Of a stretch of 10,762 bases of DNA, positions 1 through 10,762 are shown in pieces (position 1 is the stretch's first letter; every line of letters starts with the position of its first letter). The translations under genes were made by a program, and so were the position numbers. The stretch covers positions 1 to 10,762 of the forward strand of contig JBBTRL010000046.1 of the NCBI GenBank assembly GCA_038065195.1. The letters run 5' to 3'. Below the pieces are notes generated by a model. That model made no database searches, was not told where the DNA came from, and worked only from the letters and a program-made list of their open reading frames with translations. The stretch comes from Patescibacteria group bacterium (GTDB lineage: Bacteria > Patescibacteriota > Minisyncoccia > GWA2-38-13b).

Positions 1-87
1 TCGATTTTAATAATAGCGCATTTTTAGCCCGAAGTCAATAAAATGTATAACGCCAGATACATATTGGCGACATAATCTTTATTTGGC

Positions 88-117
88 TTGCTTAAAGAAC
101 TTAATCCATAGTAAAAT
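88..117 (+). promoter_or_regulatory. Putative sigma70-like promoter for tRNA-Lys (TTGCTT -18- TAAAAT)
   Basis: TTGCTT at 88-93 and TAAAAT at 112-117, about 15 nt upstream of the tRNA 5' end. This is sequence-pattern evidence only. Confidence 0.25.
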
Positions 118-132
118 CAAAATGCGATAAAC

Positions 133-205
133 GCGCCCATAGCTCAGTTGGTAGAGCAGTTGCCTCTTAAGCAAATGGTCGGGGGTTCGACTCCCTCTGG
201 GCGCA
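133..205 (+). tRNA. tRNA-Lys (anticodon CUU)
   Basis: A 73-nt cloverleaf. The acceptor stem GCGCCCA pairs with TGGGCGC, the D-stem is GCTC/GAGC, and the anticodon stem/loop is gTTGC-CTCTTAA-GCAAa with CTT at positions 34-36. The T-arm is GGGGG-TTCGACT-CCCTC with discriminator A. CCA is not encoded. Confidence 0.9.
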
Positions 206-261
206 TAAATAAAATATGCGAAATCCGATATTATACTCAAAGATTAACAGCTGCGTAATCA

Positions 262-289
262 TTGATTTTTATTAATTATCCGGTATACT
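262..289 (+). promoter_or_regulatory. Putative sigma70 promoter (TTGATT -16- TATACT) for the 358-729 gene
   Basis: The -35 element TTGATT (262-267) and the -10 element TATACT (284-289) are separated by 16 nt. An AGGAGG ribosome-binding site (345-350) lies 7 nt before the ATG at 358. Confidence 0.35.
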
Positions 290-357
290 GAAAAGAATGA
301 AAAAGTAGTTCGTTAAAATATTAAGATACCTTTAATCATTTTTTAGGAGGATTATTT

Positions 358-729
358 ATGATTGAAAAGCTTACGCTTTTGGGGAAAACTTTCGGAGTAT
401 ATTGTTCAACGCATCCGAACGAATACCACGACACGCTAATCATTGACGAATTGAATGGCGAAGCACCAAATAAAAACGCAATGATTTATTTAGATATCCG
501 GTTTGATACGAATGAATGGGATTATTATTCGTGGGAAATTCCGATTATTTCTTTATTGGAATTTGAAAAAAAATTAAATAGAACTGGCACCGCTATAATT
601 GAAGAAGAAAATAATTTATTGGCTATGAAAATTGAAGGCGGGAAATTATTTTACAAAATAAAAATCGCGAATAAATTATTTAAAGGAAAATTTATCTCAA
701 ATAATTGGAGTGAAATAAAAGAAAAATAA
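358..729 (+). CDS. Hypothetical small cytoplasmic protein (123 aa), no recognisable domain
   Basis: An ATG start with a strong AGGAGG Shine-Dalgarno sequence, rare in this window, at the ideal spacing. It ends at TAA and is followed by an intrinsic terminator. It has no transmembrane segments and no motif that I recognise. Confidence 0.6.
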   Translation: MIEKLTLLGKTFGVYCSTHPNEYHDTLIIDELNGEAPNKNAMIYLDIRFDTNEWDYYSWEIPIISLLEFEKKLNRTGTAIIEEENNLLAMKIEGGKLFYKIKIANKLFKGKFISNNWSEIKEK

Positions 730-741
730 TAAACAAAAAAA

Positions 742-768
742 ACCTGACGCAACCGCGCCGGGTTTTTA
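742..768 (+). terminator. Rho-independent terminator downstream of the 358-729 gene
   Basis: The stem ACCTGACGC / GCGCCGGGT (9 bp, one mismatch) has loop AACC and is followed by TTTTT. An A-run precedes it, so it may also act on the opposite strand. Confidence 0.5.
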
Positions 769-813
769 ATTTAATACCTAAATACTTTGAATTACGAAAT
801 ACTTTAATTCAAG

Positions 814-850
814 CTTGCGCCCCGTCTACCTACGGTAGACGGGGCGCAAG
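814..850. repeat. GC-rich perfect inverted repeat (16-17 bp arms, 3-5 nt loop) between convergent genes
   Basis: cttgcgccccgtctac-c-tac-g-gtagacggggcgcaag. It is a perfect palindrome with very high predicted stability and sits in an otherwise AT-rich intergenic region. No U-tract follows on either strand. Confidence 0.5.
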
Positions 851-909
851 AACTGCGCGCAAAAACTGCATTTCATAATTCAAGATCTGTAAATAATTTT
901 AAAACAAAC

Positions 910-2211
910 TCACCTACTTTTCTTTTTTCGCATCTTTTTTTCTTCGTCCGAAAAAATATTGATTTTACCGTATTCGCCGTCATAGCCTGGAATTATATTT
1001 AATTTTCTTTCCCTAACTCGTTTTACTCCCTCGGCAATTTTAACATCGGAAACTTGAGCAATATTGTCAATTGACGCATCAAGTAAAATGCTGAATTCGT
1101 TGCCAAAACCATTTATCAATGCTTTGTATTTTTCAAATACCATTTTTGTGCTAACGCCCACGCCGTAAACATCGCCGATAATTTCTTCCAAAGGAACTAA
1201 ATTTTTGAATGGTACGGTATTCTGTAGTTTTTCGCTTTCTTTTCTGTCCGCCAATTTATCCACCCTATTCATAACACCGATGGTTAAAGGATGTTTGCAT
1301 TTGGGACAAATGTTATTATGCGCTTTACTTTCTTTGGGACTGAATATTATATCGCAATCTCTATGACCGTCGTAATGATACTTTCCTTCTTCCGGAAAAA
1401 ATTCAACCGTATAAATAAATTCTTTGGAGTTTTTATCCTTTATCATTCGCACGATATCGGCGTAGCCCGTTTTCGCCGTATCCGCGACTTCAAAAACATT
1501 CGCTTCACGGCCGATTTTATGCAAAGAATGGGCATCGGAATTGGATATCAAAGAAATACCATCAAGTTTGGAAAGTCGCCTATTCATCGCTGGGTCCGAC
1601 GAAAGACCGGTTTCAATGGAAAAAATATACTTGGAATATGCGTCAAAACATTCCTCAATCGTATCAAATCCGGATTTTGACCCGAAAATGGAAAACCAAG
1701 GCGTCCAGACATGCGCCGGAACAATCAAGCACTGTGGCGAAGCATTCAAAACGATTTTAGTCAACTCTTTGACGTCCAACCCCAAAATCGGCCGACCGTC
1801 AGAACGCAAATTTCCAATCCGACCAAGTTGAACATTTATTTTTTCCACTGCTTCAAAATCGGGCGCGAAAACAATAATATGAATTTTACGAACTTTATTA
1901 TTTTTGGAGTATATACAGCTTATTTCAGTGGTTAAAATAAATCGTAAGTCGTTTTTTAAAACCCCCGAAAAATCATTATCTTTAATTTTATATGCATCTT
2001 TTAATCGAAAAAGTCCGTTATCCAATTCCAATTTTTCTTTAATTTCCTTAAACCAAACGGGGTGCGTGAAATCGCCGACAGAAATTACATTTATGCCCTT
2101 TATTTTTCCCCATAAATCCAAATGCTCCAAATCCATTTCTGGACTGGTCGCGCGAGAATATTTTGAATGAATGTGAAAATCACCGATAAATCGCATGTTT
2201 TTATTATACAT
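910..2211 (-). CDS. PHP-domain metal-dependent phosphoesterase with a C-terminal zinc ribbon; endonuclease Q-like (TIGR00375-type family)
   Basis: The N-terminus carries GDFHIHSKYS (PHP HxH metal site). PAHVWTPWFS, SNSDAHS, GREANVFEV, GKYHYDGHRDC, CPKCKH and GYDGEYGKI motifs appear in the same order I recall for EndoQ-family proteins (about 420-430 aa). The ATG start is at 2209-2211 and the stop is TGA. Confidence 0.55.
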   Translation of the reverse strand: MYNKNMRFIGDFHIHSKYSRATSPEMDLEHLDLWGKIKGINVISVGDFTHPVWFKEIKEKLELDNGLFRLKDAYKIKDNDFSGVLKNDLRFILTTEISCIYSKNNKVRKIHIIVFAPDFEAVEKINVQLGRIGNLRSDGRPILGLDVKELTKIVLNASPQCLIVPAHVWTPWFSIFGSKSGFDTIEECFDAYSKYIFSIETGLSSDPAMNRRLSKLDGISLISNSDAHSLHKIGREANVFEVADTAKTGYADIVRMIKDKNSKEFIYTVEFFPEEGKYHYDGHRDCDIIFSPKESKAHNNICPKCKHPLTIGVMNRVDKLADRKESEKLQNTVPFKNLVPLEEIIGDVYGVGVSTKMVFEKYKALINGFGNEFSILLDASIDNIAQVSDVKIAEGVKRVRERKLNIIPGYDGEYGKINIFSDEEKKMRKKKSR

Positions 2212-2419
2212 CGCTTTTAAATAATAAAACTATTGACTTTTGTTTTAGATACATGTTAATCTCTGAATTAGTAATTTAAAATTTGAATAATCCGAAAAGA
2301 GGAATAATTGGAATAGTAGAATAAAAACCGACGCAATTAAGAATAACTCGCAAAATATGGCATGACTTTATGATTATTTTAAGGCAATTTTTATGATATG
2401 AAAGGATGGTATAAAAAAT

Positions 2420-4228
2420 ATGTCTAGTTTGTTGTTTGGTTTTTTATTTCTTTTAGCAGCTTTATTCGCACATCAAGTAAGCCATGTTGTATTGGGAAAT
2501 AAAAATAAAATATTCACGCTTAGCGTTAGATTTGTATGCGGAGCAATTGCCGTTATTTTAATATCTTCCTTGTCTTTCGTGTTTATTGGAGAAAATGAAA
2601 CCGGTCATCTCCATAAAATTTATGGCGGGAAAAGTTTGAAAGACGGCGCGATTGTGGCTGCCAAAGGCGAAAAAGGACCGCAAGCGGATATTTTAACACC
2701 GGGTTTCCATTTCAGACCGCTTTTAAGAATTATTTATAAAGTATCCAAAGAATCGGTTTTCATTGTACCGGAAGATAAATACGGTTTTCTTATCGCTAAA
2801 GATGGCATGCCAATGCGTCCGGATCAAACATACGCCGATGCTTTTAATCCAAACGAATTAAGAAGTATGCTTTATGACGCACGATATTTTTTGGAACATA
2901 ACGGACAGAAGGGTCCGCAAACAACCGTCTTGACTCCAGGAACTCATCGTCTGAATAAATTTATTTGGGATATAAAGCTGGGTGATATAACGGAAGTTCC
3001 CGAAGGTTTCGTGGCAGTTATAAAATCAAATGTATGGTCACGAGTAGATTTCGGCAATCTTAAAACGGAAAAACCGGAAAATATTTCCCCGGTAAAAACG
3101 GATGAATTTACGGGAAGGGACTTAAAGGTCCCGCTTGTACCGGTTGGAGCTATCGGAATATGGGAAAAAGCCTTAAATCAAGGCAAATACTATATTAATG
3201 AGCATGCCTACAAAGTTATTTTATTCAATACAAGGGCCAATACATGGGAATACAAAGGAGGCTACACAAAACGTCGTATTGACTTAATGATAGATGAAAA
3301 CGGGAAAATAACTCAAAGTGAATCAAGCACCACCGTACCTGTCCCCGCAAATGCCGCCGATCCAGCTATTGAAGTAAAGGTTGAAGGATGGTCAATCCCC
3401 TTGGAATTGCGAGCGCTTGTCCAGGTATCGCCGGAAAGCGCGCCTTATGTGGTTGCTTCCGTAGGTGGTTTGCAAGAAGTTGAAGATAATATTTTAACCC
3501 CGATTATCCGTTCAGTTGTAAGAAATGTGACGGGCGGAACAATCAATGTTCCGGCAGACGATCTCTCTGGTAAATCAACCAACCGGCCAACCCGAGTACT
3601 TGATTTAATGATTAATAGGGGTGTACTGGAACAAAATATCGAAGACCAAATACAACCAGAAGGTCTGAAAGCCGGAGTTGATATAAAGGAAATCCGATTT
3701 GGCGATCCAGCCATTCCTCCCGAACTGCTTCTTGCCTGGCAAAGAGAACAATTAGCGCAACAATTAAAAAAAGCTTATACTCAAGAAAAAATCGCGCAAG
3801 ATGAAAGAATAACCACAGAAAAGGCTAAGGCAACAGCGAACCAACAGTCAAAACTCGTGGAATCGGAAATCGAAGTAAAAAGATCCGAGCAAGCAGCGAT
3901 GGCCAGGCAAAACGAAGGAACGGGAGAAAAAAATAAATTAACATTGATTGCCCAAGGACAAAAAGAACAGGTAGAGGTTTTGGGACCAGACAAAGTGGTT
4001 GAATTAAGAAAATATGAGCTACTCTTAACTACTTTGATAAATTATTTTGACAAACACCCCGAAGTATTAACGCAAGCATTATCTAACGCGCATAAATTTG
4101 TACCCGAAAGAGTATTTAGCATAGGTTCGGAAAATAAGGGAACAGATCTGATGGGCGCGGCGGGAATATTGGGAGATTTTTTAGGTCAAGAAAAACAAAT
4201 AAAAGACAATAGTCGAGAAAAAAAATAA
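2420..4228 (+). CDS. SPFH/Band-7 (flotillin/YqiK-like) membrane protein, 602 aa
   Basis: Two N-terminal hydrophobic helices are followed by an SPFH-like core (AAKGEKGPQADILTPGFHFRPLLRIIYKVS ... beta-rich region). The C-terminal region is long, Q/E/K/A-rich and coiled-coil-like (QREQLAQQLKKAYTQEKIAQDERITTEKAKATANQQ...), which is typical of flotillin-family proteins. The ATG start has an upstream AAGGA. Confidence 0.6.
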   Translation: MSSLLFGFLFLLAALFAHQVSHVVLGNKNKIFTLSVRFVCGAIAVILISSLSFVFIGENETGHLHKIYGGKSLKDGAIVAAKGEKGPQADILTPGFHFRPLLRIIYKVSKESVFIVPEDKYGFLIAKDGMPMRPDQTYADAFNPNELRSMLYDARYFLEHNGQKGPQTTVLTPGTHRLNKFIWDIKLGDITEVPEGFVAVIKSNVWSRVDFGNLKTEKPENISPVKTDEFTGRDLKVPLVPVGAIGIWEKALNQGKYYINEHAYKVILFNTRANTWEYKGGYTKRRIDLMIDENGKITQSESSTTVPVPANAADPAIEVKVEGWSIPLELRALVQVSPESAPYVVASVGGLQEVEDNILTPIIRSVVRNVTGGTINVPADDLSGKSTNRPTRVLDLMINRGVLEQNIEDQIQPEGLKAGVDIKEIRFGDPAIPPELLLAWQREQLAQQLKKAYTQEKIAQDERITTEKAKATANQQSKLVESEIEVKRSEQAAMARQNEGTGEKNKLTLIAQGQKEQVEVLGPDKVVELRKYELLLTTLINYFDKHPEVLTQALSNAHKFVPERVFSIGSENKGTDLMGAAGILGDFLGQEKQIKDNSREKK

Positions 4229-4239
4229 ACGAACACATG

Positions 4240-4274
4240 AACGCCTTGTGGATTAATTCCATAGGGCGTTTTAA
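4240..4274 (+). terminator. Rho-independent terminator after the SPFH gene
   Basis: The stem AACGCC / GGCGTT encloses an inner TGG..CCA sub-stem and is followed by TTTAAAATTT. Confidence 0.45.
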
Positions 4275-4332
4275 AATTTAAAAAACGTACGATACGAACT
4301 CACTAGAATTGACCGCGGGAAATTATTGTATT

Positions 4333-6162
4333 ATGATAAAAAAGATGAAAAATCTTATAAAAAATATATTTATCATAATACTGATATTCTTCATACTGTC
4401 AGCAATTTTTACATTCTATTCTTCAACCAACGAACCGAAAGAAATAAATTTATCGCAACTCATTGAAGAAATAAACCAAGAACAAATTGCAAAAATCACC
4501 ATCAAAGATAATAACCTTGAAATAGATCTTCGCGACGGAACGAAACAAATCTCAAAAAAAGAACGCGAATCCTCGTTAACAGAATCTTTAAAAAATTATG
4601 GGATTGAACAGAATAAAATCAACTCTTTGAATATGAAAATTCAGGAACCGTCTGGAACTATGTTTTGGATAGGCAGTATTTTGCCGATCGCCCTTCCATT
4701 TATTTTAATAATATTTTTCTTTTGGTTTTTAATGCGACAAGCGCGGCAAGGTTCAATGCAAGCGTTTTCTTTCGGCGAATCGCGCGCCCGTTTTATTTCC
4801 CCGAAAGATAAAAAAGGCAGAATAACATTTAAGGATGTTGCCGGATTGGAAGAAGCCAAAGAAGAATTGAAAGAAATTGTTGATTTTCTGAAAAACCCCA
4901 AAAAATATACCGACATCGGAGCTAAAATCCCCAAAGGCGTTTTATTGATGGGTCCGCCCGGAACCGGCAAAACCCTTCTCGCCAAAGCCGTAGCCGGAGA
5001 AGCCGATGCGCCATTTTTCAATATTTCCGGATCGGAATTCGTGGAAATGTTCGTTGGAGTCGGCGCGTCCCGCGTTAGAGATCTTTTCAAAAATGCCAAA
5101 AAAAACGCGCCAGCCATTGTTTTCATTGATGAGATTGACGCGGTTGGCCGGCAACGCGGCACCGGACTTGGCGGAGGTCACGACGAACGAGAACAAACTT
5201 TAAATCAAATTCTCGTGGAAATGGATGGATTTGATACCGATACCACTGTTATTGTAATAGCGGCAACCAACAGGCCAGATGTTTTAGATCCGGCGCTTTT
5301 ACGACCGGGAAGATTTGATCGGCGCGTTATTTTAGACAATGCGGATATCAAAGACCGCGAAGCGATACTTAAGATTCATAGTCGTAATAAACCGCTTGAT
5401 AAAACCGCAAATTTACGGCAAGTCGCGGAAAGAACTCCTGGATTCTCCGGAGCGGATTTGGAAAATCTGATTAATGAAGCGGCAATTCTAACGGCGCGAA
5501 AAAATAAAAAAATAATATCGCAACACGACATATTAAGTTCAATTGAAAAAGTTTTATTGGGACCGGAAAGAAAGAGCCATATTCTTTCCAAAAAAGAAAA
5601 AGAAATCGCCGCTTTTCACGAAGCCGGACACGCTTTAGTCGCGGCAAGTTTGCCTAATGCCGATCCTGTCCACAAAATCTCCATTATTTCGCGCGGACGA
5701 GCTGCCGGTTATACGCTTAAACTGCCAATTGAAGACAAGCAACTTTATTCCCGTTCTTATTTTTTGGACGAATTAGCGGTTTTACTCGGCGGGTACACTT
5801 CTGAAAAACTCATATTCAATGAAATGACGACCGGAGCATCCAATGACCTCCAAAAAGCATCAGAAATAGCAAGAAAACTTGTCCGTCAATATGGAATGTC
5901 TGATAAAATAGGACCGGTAACATTCGGCGAAAATGACGAATTAGTGTTTTTGGGACGAGAAATCGGCGAACACCGCAACTATTCCGAAGAAATAGCGTCA
6001 AAAATAGATCAAGAAGTAACACGATTCATTGACGATGCCCAAAAAACGGCTAAAAAGATTTTATCTTTACATAAAGAAAAATTAGAAAAAATAGCAAGAA
6101 AATTAATAGAAAAAGAAGTGATTGAACAAAAAGAATTTAATGAACTTATAAAAGAACAGTAA
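4333..6162 (+). CDS. ftsH: ATP-dependent zinc metalloprotease FtsH
   Basis: There is an N-terminal transmembrane helix, a periplasmic-like segment, then a second transmembrane helix. The AAA+ module has Walker A GPPGTGKT, Walker [10 protein letters not shown] and [23 protein letters not shown]. The M41 protease has zinc motif HEAGHAL. The ORF track begins at a TTG at 4309. The first ATG is at 4333 (MIKKMKN...), with another at 4345. The stop is TAA at 6160-6162. Confidence 0.92.
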
Positions 6163-6186
6163 AAGAACGAAAGATGGAATAAATTA

Positions 6187-6214
6187 AAAGAGCGCCTGAT
6201 AACGCTCTTTTGCT
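6187..6214 (+). terminator. Rho-independent terminator after ftsH
   Basis: The stem AAAGAGCG / CGCTCTTT (8 bp) has loop CCTGATAA and a T-rich tail (CTTTTGCTATTT). Confidence 0.45.
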
Positions 6215-6238
6215 ATTTAAAATTTTGTGATATATATT
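6210..6238 (+). promoter_or_regulatory. Putative promoter for tRNA-Ile (TTGCTA -17- TATATT)
   Basis: TTGCTA at 6210-6215 and TATATT at 6233-6238, about 13 nt before the tRNA 5' end. The -35 element overlaps the ftsH terminator tail. This is pattern evidence only. Confidence 0.25.
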
Positions 6239-6251
6239 TATTATGTAAAGT

Positions 6252-6325
6252 GGGTATGTAGCTCAGCTGGTTAGAGCACGGCCCTTATAAGGCCGGGGTC
6301 CTTGGTTCAAATCCAAGCATACCCA
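6252..6325 (+). tRNA. tRNA-Ile with anticodon UAU (AUA-decoding)
   Basis: A 74-nt cloverleaf. The acceptor stem GGGTATG pairs with CATACCC, the D-arm is GCTC-AGCTGGTTA-GAGC (Ile-like body), and the anticodon stem/loop is CGGCC-CTTATAA-GGCCG with TAT at positions 34-36. The T-arm is CTTGG-TTCAAAT-CCAAG with discriminator A. CCA is not encoded. Confidence 0.85.
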
Positions 6326-6350
6326 TAGATGCAATCCCAACGCGTTCACT

Positions 6351-6386
6351 AAAAACAATCCGATGATTTATTGTTGGATTGTTTTT
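6351..6386. terminator. Bidirectional terminator between the convergent tRNA genes
   Basis: The inverted repeat AAAAACAATCC ... GGATTGTTTTT flanks a 14-nt loop. It carries an A-run on one side and a T-run on the other, so it would terminate both tRNA-Ile (+) and tRNA-Leu (-). Confidence 0.5.
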
Positions 6387-6388
6387 AG

Positions 6389-6470
6389 TGCCGGTGAGAG
6401 GATTCGAACCTCTAATCTTTTCAGCACATGGTCCTAAACCATGCGTGTATGCCAATTCCACCACACCGGC
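6389..6470 (-). tRNA. tRNA-Leu (anticodon UAG), type II with long variable arm
   Basis: The reverse complement gives acceptor GCCGGTG/CACCGGC, anticodon stem/loop CATGG-TTTAGGA-CCATG with TAG at positions 34-36, and a 13-nt variable arm. The T-arm is AGAGG-TTCGAAT-CCTCT with discriminator A (82 nt). CCA is not encoded. Confidence 0.85.
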
Positions 6471-6509
6471 GTAAATATTGACGGACAAGTCTGCCTATCA
6501 ATAGGTATG

Positions 6510-6541
6510 CAAATCGATTCCACCACCAAATCGATTCCACC
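6510..6541. repeat. Two tandem copies of a 15-nt direct repeat (CAAATCGATTCCACC) separated by 2 nt
   Basis: Copy 1 at 6510-6524 and copy 2 at 6527-6541 are exact. A short palindrome CCTATCAATAGG lies at 6494-6505. The repeat sits in the leader region of the minus-strand tRNA-Leu. Confidence 0.5.
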
Positions 6542-6568
6542 TAATAAAATTAAACCTTATTTTAAATT

Positions 6569-6603
6569 AAAAATCAACCGGCCAAATCGGCAAGTTGATT
6601 TTT
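6569..6603. terminator. Terminator hairpin downstream of the last pilin-like gene on the minus strand
   Basis: The stem AAAAATCAAC / GTTGATTTTT (10 bp) has an inner GCC..GGC sub-stem. On the minus strand it is followed by a T-run, 20 nt after the stop of the 6623-6955 gene. Confidence 0.45.
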
Positions 6604-6622
6604 AATATTCAATGCTATCATT

Positions 6623-6955
6623 TTATAATCCGGAGACATCAATACCCAAAAACGAAGGAAGAACCTGCATCACAATAATCCACGCCAAAAATACAATCGC
6701 GACACCGGCAACCGTGTATATTATTGTAGACAAAGCCTTTTTTCTCGTCTCGTCATTTCCACCAGAAGTCATCCATTGAATGCCGGCAACAATTAAAAAC
6801 ACAACTGCCAATATAACGGCAAAGGCAAAAAACCAATTCATAGCCGTCTTAAAAAGAGCATATATCTCATCCAAATCGCCCACATTAGATTCGGTTGGCG
6901 GTTCAATCGGCTGAGCGTAAACTGTATTTATTATATTTGATAAAAAATTCAACAT
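6623..6955 (-). CDS. VirB2/TrbC-like T4SS-pilin-family small membrane protein (paralog 6, 110 aa)
   Basis: The core is NWFFAFAVILAVVFLIVAGIQWMTSGGNDETRKKALSTIIYTVAGVAIVFLAWIIV: two hydrophobic helices around a GGND..KK loop. The N-terminus is short and uncharged (MLNFLSNIINTVYAQP). The start is ATG, and an in-frame stop lies 9 nt upstream. Confidence 0.65.
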   Translation of the reverse strand: MLNFLSNIINTVYAQPIEPPTESNVGDLDEIYALFKTAMNWFFAFAVILAVVFLIVAGIQWMTSGGNDETRKKALSTIIYTVAGVAIVFLAWIIVMQVLPSFLGIDVSGL

Positions 6956-6966
6956 AAATAAACTTT

Positions 6967-7027
6967 AAAAGAAAATGACGGCGTCAAAACGAAAGTATTC
7001 CCGACGCTTTTACGCTCATTTTCTTTT
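6967..7027. other. Large imperfect palindrome in the 152-bp spacer between pilin paralogs 5 and 6
   Basis: The outer arms AAAAGAAAATGA (6967-6978) and TCATTTTCTTTT (7016-7027) are exact reverse complements. An inner stem GCGTC/GACGC and a GACGGCGTC palindrome lie between them. Confidence 0.45.
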
Positions 7028-7107
7028 GTTTATCTCCGCGCCTTTCCGTAAAATAAATATTTACAGCAAAGTGCGAAAATTCATTAAACGACCTTTAGAT
7101 AACTTTA

Positions 7108-7521
7108 TTATAAACTTATTTCATTTAATATATCACAAAAACTCGTACCGAACAAACCCAAAATCAAATCAAGCAAACCGGAGGCAAGACCGCCCGATTC
7201 TATATCTAATTCTCCTATCCCCAAAAATTTAGGTATAATCTGCTCAACTATTATCCTGGAAGCAAAAATAACCATTACACCGACTGCGGTAAAATATAAT
7301 TTATTTAATGCCGTTTTTTTTGTATCAACATTACCTCCGGCAGTCATCATGCTAATTCCAATAGAAATTGTATAAATAATAGCTACCACTATGGAAAAAG
7401 CAAAAAACCAATTCAATATTTTCAAAAAAAGACAATAAAGAACACCTACGGTGGGAACCGCCCCAATCGCGCCTATTCCGCTTTGCGCCCAAGCAGATTT
7501 AATAAAAAAATTTAATATCAA
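7108..7521 (-). CDS. VirB2/TrbC-like T4SS-pilin-family small membrane protein (paralog 5, 137 aa)
   Basis: The core is LNWFFAFSIVVAIIYTISIGISMMTAGGNVDTKKTALNKLYFTAVGVMVIFASRIIV. It begins at a TTG at 7519-7521, because the only in-frame ATG lies deep inside and a stop lies 15 nt upstream. Its N-terminus (M)ILNFFIKSAWAQ parallels that of paralog 6. Confidence 0.6.
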   Translation of the reverse strand: MILNFFIKSAWAQSGIGAIGAVPTVGVLYCLFLKILNWFFAFSIVVAIIYTISIGISMMTAGGNVDTKKTALNKLYFTAVGVMVIFASRIIVEQIIPKFLGIGELDIESGGLASGLLDLILGLFGTSFCDILNEISL

Positions 7522-7554
7522 GATCGTAATTGATTCTTATAATTTAAATTAACA

Positions 7555-8037
7555 TTAAATACCTGCGCCCATACGTGAAAAAATATTTCCAAGCAAACTC
7601 GCCCACCATACCACCTCGCATTTTACAGCGTAAATCGGTAATATAATCGCCTCAAAACCTGCCGTAAATACGCCCAAAAACATCGCAATCATTATTAAAA
7701 TAGATGTGGAAAGCAAAACTATGACAATTCCCACGAAAATCCATGATAAATTCTTATGAACGGTTGAAAGCGTTTGCGGATCTCCGGAAGCAAATATATA
7801 ACGAAGTCCGTTTATAATTAATAATATTATCGCAATCACAAGCGCAAAACTAAAAAGCCATGTCATAAGACGCAAAAATATGCAATAAACTACTCCTGTC
7901 GTAGAATCTATTCCTGGGGTATTTTTCAGCAACTCATCAAGATCCAATTCTTCCGCCAGCGCAAAAGCATAAAAACTAAAAAATAGCGTAAAAAATATTA
8001 TAGTATACTTTATAAATACAATTCCCTTATAAAACAT
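7555..8037 (-). CDS. VirB2/TrbC-like T4SS-pilin-family membrane protein (paralog 4, 160 aa) with an extra C-terminal hydrophobic extension
   Basis: It has a Sec-type signal peptide (MFYKGIVFIKYTIIFFTLFFSFYAFALA|EE). The core is LMTWLFSFALVIAIILLIINGLRYIFASGDPQTLSTVHKNLSWIFVGIVIVLL, followed by about 45 additional hydrophobic residues. The start is ATG. Confidence 0.6.
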   Translation of the reverse strand: MFYKGIVFIKYTIIFFTLFFSFYAFALAEELDLDELLKNTPGIDSTTGVVYCIFLRLMTWLFSFALVIAIILLIINGLRYIFASGDPQTLSTVHKNLSWIFVGIVIVLLSTSILIMIAMFLGVFTAGFEAIILPIYAVKCEVVWWASLLGNIFSRMGAGI

Positions 8038-8048
8038 AATAAATTTTT

Positions 8049-8519
8049 TTACGATCCGCTAACTTCTAAAATACTCCTGATAAAAGCGATGATGCTTGAA
8101 GAATTGATTAAAGCCTCCTCCGGCACCTCCAAAATACTCCTAACAAAAGCGATAATACCGCGACCAATCAATAAGACCGCAACGCCGACTATCAGCCAAA
8201 TCAACGCTGTTTTCGCTTTTCCAATTTGCGCGTCACCACCGCCGGCTGCAAAAAATAAAACACCAATATAAATCGTTAAAATTATGGCAAGCACAATCGC
8301 TACGGAATAGAAATATCTGGCAACCCTTTGCAAAATAGCCACCACATCATCCAATGTTAAATCAATGCCCTTGACGCCTTGTTCAGAATCTAGATCGTCA
8401 GTAGAAGTGCTGGTAGTCGCCTGAATCGGCGCGGCAAAAAATATACTCGCCACGAACAAACCGATAAAAAACAAAGCGCCAAATCGTAAAATATTTTTAT
8501 GCAATATTTGTTTTTTCAT
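8049..8519 (-). CDS. VirB2/TrbC-like T4SS-pilin-family membrane protein (paralog 3, 156 aa), recent duplicate of paralog 2 with an internally duplicated C-terminus
   Basis: It has a signal peptide (MKKQILHKNILRFGALFFIGLFVASIFFAAPIQA|TT). The core is YFYSVAIVLAIILTIYIGVLFFAAGGGDAQIGKAKTALIWLIVGVAVLLIG. The C-terminus reads IIAFVRSILEV-PEEALINSSS-IIAFIRSILEV, arising from a 63-nt tandem duplication (8065-8093 and 8128-8156, 25/29 identical). Confidence 0.7.
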   Translation of the reverse strand: MKKQILHKNILRFGALFFIGLFVASIFFAAPIQATTSTSTDDLDSEQGVKGIDLTLDDVVAILQRVARYFYSVAIVLAIILTIYIGVLFFAAGGGDAQIGKAKTALIWLIVGVAVLLIGRGIIAFVRSILEVPEEALINSSSIIAFIRSILEVSGS

Positions 8520-8595
8520 TTTAATTTATTAATAAATACCTTAAATAACGAAGCTTATTTCGTAATTTAAAATAAATAATTAAATCTTCTTTTAT

Positions 8596-9000
8596 CTATT
8601 CCACGCTCAACATATCTTTTATAAGAGTTATAAACCCCTGACCAATCAATAGAACCGCAACGCCGATCATCAGCCAAATAAATGTTTTTCTCGCTTTTGC
8701 GACTTGTTGATCGTTGCCACCAGCCGTAAAAAATAAAATGGAAGTGTAGATTACCATAATTGGAATCAGCGCAATGGCTATGTAATAAAAATAGTCAGCA
8801 ACTCTTTCCACAATATCTATTATTTCATCCGTTTCTAACGGATTGGGATATTCAATTGTAGTGCTACTGGCAACGATGCCAGTAGTGGTCGCCAAAACAG
8901 GCGCGACGAAAAATACGCTCGTTGCAAAAAATAATATGAAAAGTGAAACACCCAATCGTAAAATAATTTTCAATGATTTTTTTAAATTTTTACTCCCCAT
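8596..9000 (-). CDS. VirB2/TrbC-like T4SS-pilin-family membrane protein (paralog 2, 134 aa)
   Basis: It has a signal peptide (MGSKNLKKSLKIILRLGVSLFILFFATSVFFVAPVLA|TT). The core is YFYYIAIALIPIMVIYTSILFFTAGGNDQQVAKARKTFIWLMIGVAVLLIG. It shares about 85% nucleotide identity with paralog 3 over the core, for example 8639-8700 against 8161-8222. Confidence 0.7.
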   Translation of the reverse strand: MGSKNLKKSLKIILRLGVSLFILFFATSVFFVAPVLATTTGIVASSTTIEYPNPLETDEIIDIVERVADYFYYIAIALIPIMVIYTSILFFTAGGNDQQVAKARKTFIWLMIGVAVLLIGQGFITLIKDMLSVE

Positions 9001-9050
9001 AAAATAATTATACTCTATAAATCAATAAAATAATACAAAGACGACGATAT

Positions 9051-9464
9051 CTAACACTTGACCTTATACCATGGCCATGGAAATCCCGCCGGTTGATCGG
9101 CGCCGGAACCAGTCATCATTAATAAAATGGAATCTACAAGCAACCACGCTCCATAAATAATCAATGCGCCCATAACCACGCCGTATAAAATACTTTTCGC
9201 CCAAGCAAGTTGTTTCTCGCTGCCGCCTGAAGTGAAAAAAAGAATCCCGCTCGTAACTATAAGTAAAGCTGCCAACGGCGTAACTAAATCAATAATAATA
9301 AAATCAATTATTCCCTTTGACATAACAAAAAAATCGCATGTCGTGCAATCCGCCTCTCCTTCGCCACCACACGGAACCAAACCCGCCGCATTGGATGCCA
9401 ATGGCAAAAACACAAACAATACTGCCATAAACAATAATATAAATTGATATATTGATACTCTCAA
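9051..9464 (-). CDS. VirB2/TrbC-like T4SS-pilin-family membrane protein with an N-terminal Cys motif (paralog 1, 137 aa)
   Basis: After a Sec-like signal peptide (MRVSIYQFILLFMAVLFVFLPLASNA|AG) comes GLVPCGGEGEADCTTCDFF, the Cys-containing motif I associate with the CPR T4SS-pilin family. The core is LIVTSGILFFTSGGSEKQLAWAKSILYGVVMGALIIYGAWLLV and the C-terminus ends in ...YKVKC. The start is a TTG at 9462-9464, 14 nt after the stop of the SBP gene. An alternative ATG at 9426-9428 would leave no signal peptide n-region. Confidence 0.65.
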   Translation of the reverse strand: MRVSIYQFILLFMAVLFVFLPLASNAAGLVPCGGEGEADCTTCDFFVMSKGIIDFIIIDLVTPLAALLIVTSGILFFTSGGSEKQLAWAKSILYGVVMGALIIYGAWLLVDSILLMMTGSGADQPAGFPWPWYKVKC

Positions 9465-9478
9465 GTTTTTAATTTTTA

Positions 9479-10762
9479 TTATTTCCTATATAACACATTT
9501 ATCTGGTTTGCCGATTTTTCTATTGTCTGCCTAATTGTGGATTGCCCAAAAACAATTGATTCTATCATATCGGCAAATATTTTTTCAATTGCAACATTGT
9601 CAATCTGATACCAAGACTTAGCTGTAAGCGATTGCAACGCAAAAACCCCCAAGTGCGCCTTATCTTTTTGCGAATTAACTAAATCCCTTCTGGCCGTCGG
9701 TCTTTTTGACGCCTCCAAATATTTCAACGCATTATCTTTTAAGGCCATAAACTGAATAAAATGCCATGCCCATCCGGGATTTTTAGAATTTACAAAAACG
9801 GTTGGCGCCCAATAACCGGCATAAGAAATATTATTAGCGCTGCCGACGATTTGCGGAATCGCCGCAACACCGAAATTAAGATATGGCGCTTTATTTTTAA
9901 TAGTATCAATGTGATGAGAATAATTTATCATCATCGCGGTCTTGCCTTGGTAGAACGCGTCTATGGAATAATCCATTTCAGAATTCCATGTATAAACTTC
10001 TTTCTGAGGATTGGCAAAGTCCGTATAAAACCTCAATGCCTCTTCGCCTGCCGCGAACGGCTGACCATCTAAGGAAACAAATTTATCAAATATGACTCTA
10101 TTGCTTTGCGGATCAGTCATTTGCGTACCGGTCTGCATCATTAGAAGTCCAAGAATATCCGTGGAACGATTTATGTTTTTTGCCATACCAATGGCCGCGC
10201 CAGCCCTGACGATATTTCCGAAATCGTCTTTCTTGGTTAAAATTTTTACATCTTTAACGAAATCATCCCATGTTAACGGCGGTTCCGCTATGCCACTACT
10301 CTGAAAAATATCTTTATTCCAATATAAAGCCAATGTGTCCACAAAAAGAGGCAAACCGTAAATCTGATCGCCGACTACCAAATCCCGAAACGCCACATCA
10401 ACAAACGAATCCTTGAAGTTTTGAATTGTCATCATTGTTGGAGATAATGGAACGATCTTGTCTTTGTGTTTCGGAAGCCATGTATTATTAATACTCCAAA
10501 TATCCGGTCCCTTGCCGGCGGCAAAAGCGCTGATTAAATCTTTTTCATAATCTTCAAATGCCTTTTTAACATAAGTAATGGTTACTAACGGATACAAACG
10601 CTGATATTCCTTTATGATATCGGTAAAATAATTACCATTATCGTAAACACTCCAAAATTCCAAATCAATTTTTTTTGTTGACTTGGGTTTCTTGATGCCG
10701 AATACAATAGCAAAGACAACGATCAAAACAACCACGAAAACTACTCCTAAAAATATTATCCG
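9479..10762 (-). CDS. Extracellular solute-binding protein (ABC-type, family 1 / MalE-like), membrane-anchored; 5' end runs off the window edge
   Basis: The ORF stays open to the window end. The in-frame upstream codons encode RIIFLGVVF ahead of the listed GTG. An N-terminal transmembrane anchor is followed by KKPKSTKKIDLEFWSVYD. GKGPDIW and aromatic-rich periplasmic-binding-protein signatures appear throughout. The stop is at 9479-9481. Confidence 0.7.
   Translation of the reverse strand, partial: RIIFLGVVFVVVLIVVFAIVFGIKKPKSTKKIDLEFWSVYDNGNYFTDIIKEYQRLYPLVTITYVKKAFEDYEKDLISAFAAGKGPDIWSINNTWLPKHKDKIVPLSPTMMTIQNFKDSFVDVAFRDLVVGDQIYGLPLFVDTLALYWNKDIFQSSGIAEPPLTWDDFVKDVKILTKKDDFGNIVRAGAAIGMAKNINRSTDILGLLMMQTGTQMTDPQSNRVIFDKFVSLDGQPFAAGEEALRFYTDFANPQKEVYTWNSEMDYSIDAFYQGKTAMMINYSHHIDTIKNKAPYLNFGVAAIPQIVGSANNISYAGYWAPTVFVNSKNPGWAWHFIQFMALKDNALKYLEASKRPTARRDLVNSQKDKAHLGVFALQSLTAKSWYQIDNVAIEKIFADMIESIVFGQSTIRQTIEKSANQINVLYRK

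Follow-up and report, generated by a model that had tools for sequence, protein, structure and literature searches.

A tRNA-Ile(UAU) gene beside ftsH is a probable tilS-independent decoder of AUA codons in a clade of Patescibacteria

The stretch of DNA analysed here, 10,762 nucleotides from a Patescibacteria group bacterium (assembly GCA_038065195.1, contig JBBTRL010000046.1, positions 1 to 10,762; hereafter the window), carries a tRNA-Ile gene with the anticodon UAU shortly downstream of ftsH. This gene is probably a functional and inherited decoder of AUA that is independent of tilS, of the kind known from Mycoplasma mobile, and that has become fixed beside ftsH across a large clade of these ultra-small bacteria of groundwater in place of TilS and tRNA-Ile2(CAU). 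Formation of lysidine by TilS is regarded as essential and near-universal in bacteria, with tRNA-Ile(UAU) passing for an oddity found in few genomes. Taken with its relatives, the window suggests that much of the candidate phyla radiation (CPR) uses UAU as its standard solution, and that this solution arose at the very locus which sister lineages devote to tilS and tRNA-Ile2(CAU). The window belongs to a metagenome-assembled genome (MAG) from the 0.2 µm fraction of Hainich groundwater, where it lies on a contig of 86 kb (ENA ERZ1292640), and its proteins are held at NCBI under the name 'Patescibacteria group bacterium' (MEK7627385-MEK7627389, locus tags AAB397_).

The gene was confirmed to be a real and intact isoleucine tRNA with a UAU anticodon. 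ARAGORN called a tRNA-Ile with the anticodon tat at 6251-6326 (+), and Rfam RF00005 (gathering score 29) spanned 6252-6325 (+) end to end over model positions 1-71, with 74.0 bits and E = 4.3e-15. A first-pass annotation of the same DNA had proposed exactly these coordinates, this isotype and the loop CTTATAA, all of which were recovered. No non-canonical pairs were flagged by Rfam in 6252-6325, and all stem positions form standard pairs.

6252..6325, + strand: tRNA-Ile(UAU) gene, 74 nt, with no encoded CCA (ARAGORN, Rfam RF00005 and covariation in 33 relatives)
6286..6288, + strand: anticodon TAT (U34 A35 U36) in the loop CTTATAA (direct reading of the sequence and the ARAGORN anticodon position)

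Divided into its arms, the gene reads GGGTATG TA GCTC AGCTGGTTA GAGC A CGGCC CTTATAA GGCCG GGGTC CTTGG TTCAAAT CCAAG CATACCC A. The discriminator is A73, and the 3′ end runs ACCCA followed by TAG (6325-6328). CCA is not encoded, and the window organism must therefore rely on a CCA-adding enzyme for this tRNA; in several close relatives (loci L130, L171, L180, L207 and L213) the tRNA(UAU) gene encodes CCA. Genes for PolyA_pol/tRNA nucleotidyltransferase were seen near ftsH in L300, L303 and L305.

In an alignment of 33 related tRNA(UAU) genes, compensatory changes were found at 17 of the 21 pairs, and U12-A23, A73 and C32-U33-U34-A35-U36-A37 were invariant, which argues that the family consists of working tRNAs under selection. 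The ancestry of the body was approached by scanning the GTDB species genomes with a 32-nt core of the window tRNA in which position 34 was left free. Among the 96 matches, 83 had G34, all with G26 and A44 (Chloroflexia, Planctomycetes and two Uhrbacteria), and 13, from 13 GTDB species with the identical core, had T34, all with A26 and G44; none had C34. No CAT version of the core was found, so nothing points to a recent C34-to-T point mutation in this body. The window tRNA was 85-89% identical to the five closest T34 genes and 73-82% identical to the other eight, 84% identical to the tRNA-Ile(GAT) of Uhrbacteria, and 65-69% identical to the CAT tRNAs compared. The body is thus of the Ile(GAU) type, as the first-pass annotation had stated, and it shares the D arm and the anticodon stem CGGCC/GGCCG with patescibacterial tRNA-Ile(GAU), from which the A26 and G44 of all 13 T34 relatives set it apart. 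The T34 genes were labelled Magasanikbacteria, Falkowbacteria, Patescibacteria or, doubtfully, 'Gammaproteobacteria'.

Seven MAG records titled 'uncultured Gammaproteobacteria bacterium' (L130, L170, L171, L174, L180, L207 and L213) carry a patescibacterial-type tRNA-Ile(UAU). Two of them (L170, L174) have a 48%-identical homologue of a 433-aa gene of the window, and the GC content of three records checked (L207, L209 and L213) is 35-44%. The 'Gammaproteobacteria' labels look wrong.

The gene's position is conserved together with its anticodon. A metagenome scan with the window FtsH was evaluated over the best 80 loci (FtsH identity 51-68%). A tRNA(tat) was present in 25 of them; in 17 it followed ftsH at a distance of up to 1 kb, and tRNA-Val(gac) often came next. 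In the FtsH clade of the window, as delimited by a quick neighbour-joining tree, 23 of the 26 loci with enough downstream sequence had the tRNA(UAU) and none had tilS, at FtsH identities of 57-68%. No CAT tRNA was found by ARAGORN in the window, nor was one present in the 25 UAU-bearing loci. Elsewhere among the 80 loci, tilS lay directly upstream of ftsH in 12 (PP-loop motif and hidden Markov model (HMM); five verified above the TIGR02432 cutoff). Six further tilS-ftsH lineages were recovered by a TilS search, so that tilS was directly upstream of ftsH in 18 of 18 tilS-bearing lineages examined. A tRNA(tat) was found neither in the 12 tilS-bearing loci nor in the six further lineages. Among the 50 loci informative on both sides of ftsH, 21 had the UAU tRNA only, 10 had tilS only, 19 had neither and none had both.

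In three members of the UAU clade (L226, L234 and L223) the S1 gene and ftsH are direct neighbours, gmk-tilS being missing from the interval, and a search for tilS remnants in the S1-ftsH gaps of clade members revealed small unrelated open reading frames (ORFs) alone, with no match to the TilS HMM. This HMM likewise matched no ORF of locus L001, which covers contig positions 1-15355 and contains the window, and no ileS (KMSKS motif, at least 600 aa) was found in the loci examined. The link to tilS loss drawn by the first-pass annotation held in part, at the ftsH locus: the conserved slot upstream of ftsH holds no tilS, and the UAU tRNA is missing from relatives in which tilS is present there.

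The canonical system was found in the same place in sister lineages. A search with the TilS of L228, the one nearest to the clade, returned short type-II TilS proteins, of which the named ones were labelled Moranbacteria or Parcubacteria, and their genes stood uniformly in the order S1-gmk-tilS-ftsH. The FtsH of these lineages is 61-65% identical to the window FtsH, as close as that of most UAU-clade members. In L300/L301 and L309, a tRNA(cat) lies beside tRNA-Val(gac) just downstream of tilS-ftsH. The tRNA(cat) of L300 is approximately 90-92% identical to E. coli genes annotated as tRNA-Ile with anticodon CAT, and that of L309 is 96% identical to that of L300, which identifies both as genuine tRNA-Ile2 and as substrates of TilS. 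The window tRNA is 66-69% identical to these two bona fide tRNA-Ile2(CAU). The contrasting ftsH loci indicate that sister lineages place the two AUA-decoding systems in one and the same chromosomal neighbourhood, where they are mutually exclusive. The arrangement of the clade is ftsH-tRNA-Ile(UAU), in part followed by tRNA-Val(GAC) and without tilS, against S1-gmk-tilS-ftsH in its sisters.

Two further loci were recorded in this context. The tilS-bearing L302 has a wider neighbourhood of pilin, solute-binding protein and GyrA genes like that of the window's contig. In L238 (5376-7290), from a low-GC relative, three CAT tRNAs, probably fMet, Met and Ile2, are clustered directly upstream of tilS-ftsH, another case in which AUA and AUG decoding genes are gathered at the ftsH locus.

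Complete genomes gave a pattern of the same kind. For 95 complete genomes, tRNA counts are available in Table S2 of a 2026 study (PMC13011429) on introns in patescibacterial tRNAs, and we paired the table's tRNAscan-SE 'Ile' column, which excludes Ile2, with its ARAGORN 'Met' column, which holds all CAT tRNAs:

Ile-typed at least 2, CAT at most 2: 40 genomes (all Dojkabacteria, Microgenomatia, WWE3, UBA1384 and Doudnabacteria; 14/20 Paceibacteria; 2/4 ABY1; 2/5 Gracilibacteria)
Ile-typed 1, CAT at least 3: 50 genomes (34/36 Saccharimonadia; JAEDAM01; Kazan-3B-28; 5 Paceibacteria; 3 Gracilibacteria)
Ile-typed at least 2, CAT at least 3: 5 genomes (2 ABY1; 1 Paceibacteria; 2 Saccharimonadia)
Ile-typed 1, CAT at most 2: 0 genomes

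Such complementary counts are what replacement of tRNA-Ile2(CAU) by tRNA-Ile(UAU) predicts. The authors of that study did not comment on the complementarity, and anticodons of Ile tRNAs are not discussed in their text.

The first-pass annotation had called a genomic UAU anticodon rare, which is true of the classical literature: the count stood at nine tilS-less species in three clades in 2013 (PMC3575796), a 2021 paper (PMC8450103) gave 17 bacterial genomes, from Bifidobacterium, Mycoplasma and Neorickettsia, and the words 'rare cases' recur in a preprint of 2026. The description fails for phages and for Patescibacteria, where the gene was found at 25/80 ftsH loci and, with an identical core, in 13 GTDB species, and where 40/95 complete genomes have matching counts. 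The literature searched contained no link between Patescibacteria or CPR and TilS, lysidine or UAU. The window gene itself is an ordinary member of a lineage-wide class of tilS-independent UAU decoders and of a known kind; the lineage-wide pattern appears to be unreported so far, UAU being common in Patescibacteria though the literature calls it rare. We lean towards the broader view that a large share of Patescibacteria/CPR (at least 8 classes and approximately 40% of complete genomes, including ABY1, Dojkabacteria, Microgenomatia and most Paceibacteria) abandoned lysidine, and that a U34 tRNA-Ile took over the ancestral tilS-ftsH-tRNA locus.

Demand for a reader of AUA is high in the window organism. 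ATA accounts for 109 of the 3038 codons in 11 window ORFs (35.9 per 1000) and for 34% of the Ile codons, a frequency close to the top of the range that PMC12514573 gives for bacteria, and the heavy use of ATA across the ORFs remarked on by the first-pass annotation was borne out. When the 27 ATA sites of ftsH were compared with 78 homologues, the aligned residues were I (33%), V (21%), L (20%) and M (6%). These columns resemble those of ATT and ATC codons and differ from those of ATG codons (M 44%); at sites 353 and 566 they are 97% and 94% Ile. This alignment with Ile, Val and Leu indicates that AUA keeps its standard meaning of isoleucine.

In the proposed mechanism, tRNA-Ile(UAU) would read the abundant AUA codons as isoleucine and most likely replaces TilS and lysidine-modified tRNA-Ile2(CAU) throughout the clade. 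The remainder of this genome would presumably hold neither tilS nor tRNA-Ile2(CAU), and the isoleucyl-tRNA synthetase (IleRS) of the organism presumably accepts an anticodon with U34. By analogy with M. mobile, misreading of AUG may be avoided by adaptation of IleRS or of the ribosome together with competition from tRNA-Met; an as yet unknown modification of U34 might serve the same end.

Judged by analogy, the closest mechanistic model would be that of M. mobile (Taniguchi et al. 2013, PMC3575796), where a genomic UAU likewise reads AUA in an AT-rich, reduced genome and stands in for TilS and tRNA-Ile2(CAU). For M. mobile it has been demonstrated that U34 is unmodified, that IleRS Arg865, at the position of E. 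coli Trp905, is required and that the ribosome rejects AUG; for the window system such features would be predictions by analogy. M. mobile is a single species, in contrast to the deep clade in which the present gene has become fixed, with linkage to ftsH. A U34 on a body of the GAU type is also seen in the tilS-suppressor tRNA-Ile1 G34U of B. subtilis (Fabret 2011; Köhrer 2014, PMC3919564; summarised in PMC3575796), but that tRNA is a laboratory suppressor and the window tRNA is natural and conserved. UAU anticodons without a C34-modifying enzyme occur further in Bifidobacterium and Neorickettsia, where tRNA-Ile(UAU) is accompanied by a eukaryote-type IleRS, and in Nanoarchaeum equitans and Korarchaeum, which have the archaeal tRNA-Ile3(UAU) (PMC3575796, PMC8450103). 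N. equitans is likewise an ultra-small episymbiont, but the origins of all these systems are phylogenetically independent of that of the window system. With the canonical TilS system the window gene shares the decoding of AUA and the neighbourhood, S1-gmk-tilS-ftsH-tRNA-Ile2(CAU)-tRNA-Val(GAC) in L300 and L309; it differs in having TAT instead of CAT, no tilS adjoining ftsH and a clearly distinct body, at the 66-69% identity given above.

Several results weigh against replacement of TilS by this tRNA. The published table holds counts, not anticodons, and coexistence of the two systems may occur, since five of the 95 genomes have a second Ile tRNA along with three CAT tRNAs. Judged by the number of Met tRNAs that tRNAscan-SE assigned, three (GCA_023898465.1, GCA_015256915.3 and GCA_015257795.3) may represent a transitional state, and the remaining two seem to owe their extra CAT tRNA to a second elongator Met. 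The exclusion of tilS and tRNA(UAU) at the 50 informative loci has a Fisher p of 0.003, which ignores phylogenetic non-independence, and many of the tilS loci are from high-GC bacteria outside the CPR. As 19 loci have neither gene near ftsH, a tilS-less slot is no proof of loss, and the portion of the 86-kb contig read for tilS, tRNA-Ile2(CAU), tRNA-Ile(GAU) and ileS was 15 kb. At matched GC, UAU-type and tilS-type loci showed no clear difference in the use of ATA in ftsH. The assignment of the isotype rests on the anticodon and on similarity, not on tRNAscan-SE isotype models. The identity set of E. coli IleRS, reportedly described by Nureki et al. in 1994, is said to comprise A35-U36, A37, A38, A73 and U12-A23 along with the pairs C4-G69 and C29-G41. 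The window tRNA carries every single element and the U12-A23 pair of this set and lacks the other two pairs, having U4-A69 and G29-C41 instead. G29-C41 is present also in the patescibacterial tRNA-Ile(GAT) genes of L156 and L168, so the two E. coli pairs are not lineage-wide requirements.

The points on coexistence would suit a redundant decoder, that is, a genome that keeps tilS and tRNA-Ile2(CAU) elsewhere and has tRNA-Ile(UAU) in addition, as do Lactobacillus casei, Cyanothece and Ferrimonas, or as in the transitional state of Taniguchi et al. Coexistence of this sort is documented (PMC3575796), tilS need not adjoin ftsH, as the 19 loci illustrate, and the rest of this genome lies outside the stretch read. 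We nevertheless regard a redundant decoder as unlikely. Co-occurrence of tilS and tRNA(UAU) was zero in approximately 100 loci, tilS adjoins ftsH in every tilS-bearing relative sampled while the slot here is without it, and 90 of the 95 complete genomes are strictly either/or by counts. The strong conservation of the gene across a deep clade moreover argues against its being dispensable.

An accessory tRNA brought in by a phage or other mobile element, which would boost AUA decoding without being a core gene, is very improbable. Phage tRNA-Ile(UAU) genes are abundant in IMG/VR, agree with the window gene in the anticodon and resemble it in the D arm. At least 120 matches in viral contigs were obtained with a generic Ile(TAT) pattern, the window tRNA matches tRNA-Ile genes of cultured phages at 80-90%, and tRNA genes are frequent integration sites. 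The window gene is, however, chromosomal, with no phage context: megablast of the 10.7-kb window against the phage collection gave no match, Pfam found no integrase or phage gene in the window, synteny with the housekeeping gene ftsH is kept across an FtsH clade of 57-68% identity, and the closest relatives of the tRNA are on patescibacterial MAG contigs.

That the gene is non-functional, or its product not charged with isoleucine (AUA being reassigned to, for example, Met or Lys), is the least credible alternative, for although related tRNA(UAU) are very heterogeneous, some with C38 or U38 and some with a Lys-like acceptor and D arm, and the E. coli identity pairs 4-69 and 29-41 are not conserved, the ATA sites align with Ile, Val and Leu and not with Met or Lys, and the gene combines 84% identity to tRNA-Ile(GAU) with a perfect cloverleaf of 74 bits and strong covariation in its family.

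As to how the UAU gene arose, the resident tRNA-Ile2 could have undergone C34U, or a copy of tRNA-Ile(GAU) could have undergone G34U. The chromosomal position of the UAU gene would favour the former and the window sequence the latter. The bodies in the family are unusually diverse, ranging from 55 to 89% identity to the window gene, with A, C or U at position 38. To go by these sequences, the diversity may reflect recruitment or remoulding of tRNA genes, or rapid co-evolution with IleRS.

Some individual bodies were recorded. Many of the ftsH-linked tRNA(UAU) in L220-L299 (for example L232 11902-11976, L220 11817-11891 and L255 12556-12630) have the loops CTTATAC or CTTATAT (C38 or U38). The acceptor stem GCGCCCA is common to the tRNA(UAU) of L232, L124 and L177 and to the tRNA-Lys(CUU) of the window (133-205), and the L232 gene has the whole D arm of this tRNA-Lys as well, being identical to it over the first 25 nt and at the 3′ end.

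If replacement of TilS by tRNA-Ile(UAU) holds across so large a share of Patescibacteria/CPR, this would be by far the largest bacterial radiation to decode AUA without lysidine, and co-adapted IleRS and ribosomes, or an undescribed modification of U34, would be implied. It would remove the 'universal' bac120 marker TIGR02432 from these lineages and would explain a missing phylogenomic marker. In annotation, a third CAT tRNA would not be expected in these genomes. Hundreds of genomes with and without tilS in one phylum would also form a natural replicated comparison, which could reveal the changes in IleRS and the ribosome that accompany decoding of AUA with U34.

The surroundings of the gene in the window are as follows:

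4309..6162, + strand: ftsH, with its stop codon 89 nt 5′ of the tRNA-Ile(UAU) gene (Pfam FtsH_ext, AAA and Peptidase_M41; PDB FtsH E = 1e-193)
2420..4228, + strand: SPFH/Band_7 gene (Pfam Band_7) in the slot directly 5′ of ftsH, which gmk-tilS occupies in tilS-bearing relatives
6186..6211, no strand assigned: GC-containing palindromic hairpin AAAAGAGCGCCTGATAACGCTCTTTT with a T run, the likely ftsH terminator between ftsH and the tRNA (terminator scan)
6210..6244, + strand: sigma-70-like hexamer pairs TTGCTA-17-TATATT and TTTAAA-17-TATTAT, 8-14 nt 5′ of the tRNA (consensus scan)
6347..6390, no strand assigned: 20-bp A/T-flanked hairpin between the convergent tRNA-Ile(UAU) and tRNA-Leu(UAG) (RNA fold)
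6389..6470, - strand: tRNA-Leu(UAG), the convergent neighbour (ARAGORN and Rfam, 58 bits)

The longest ORF of ftsH begins with TTG at 4309 and encodes 617 aa, and the public gene call on the same contig has 605 aa, which places the start at approximately 4345, 12 codons downstream; an exact-sequence look-up of the 617-aa FtsH gave no match. The hexamer pairs at 6210..6244 are tentatively suggested as a promoter of the tRNA's own, the region holding 7 sigma-70-like sites against 2.3 expected by consensus match alone. The hairpin at 6347..6390 folds with -26.2 kcal/mol (z = -6.96; none of 200 shuffles was equally stable) and is a likely bidirectional terminator. Besides Ile(tat) at 6251-6326 (+), ARAGORN called Lys(ctt) at 133-205 (+) and Leu(tag) at 6388-6470 (-), which makes three tRNAs for the whole window. 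Most relatives have tRNA-Val(GAC), not tRNA-Leu(UAG), next to tRNA(UAU).

The 433-aa protein encoded at 910-2211 (-) matched the TIGR00375 family with 206 bits, below the cutoff of 326.6, along with a weak PHP_C and a precomputed PF27218 (MJ0043_C). Its homologues lie within a few kb of tRNA-Ile(UAU) also in two distant MAGs (L170 2353-3621 and L174 3437-4735). It was considered as a possible tRNA-modifying enzyme, but Pfam and NCBIfam returned only the sub-cutoff TIGR00375 and the weak PHP_C and established no link to the tRNA. By Pfam, the window genes include SPFH/Band_7, ftsH, a solute-binding protein and, right after the tRNA pair at 6623-9464 (-), 5-6 small tandem paralogues with a T4SS_pilin domain (PF18895/TrbC), a content typical of Patescibacteria/CPR.

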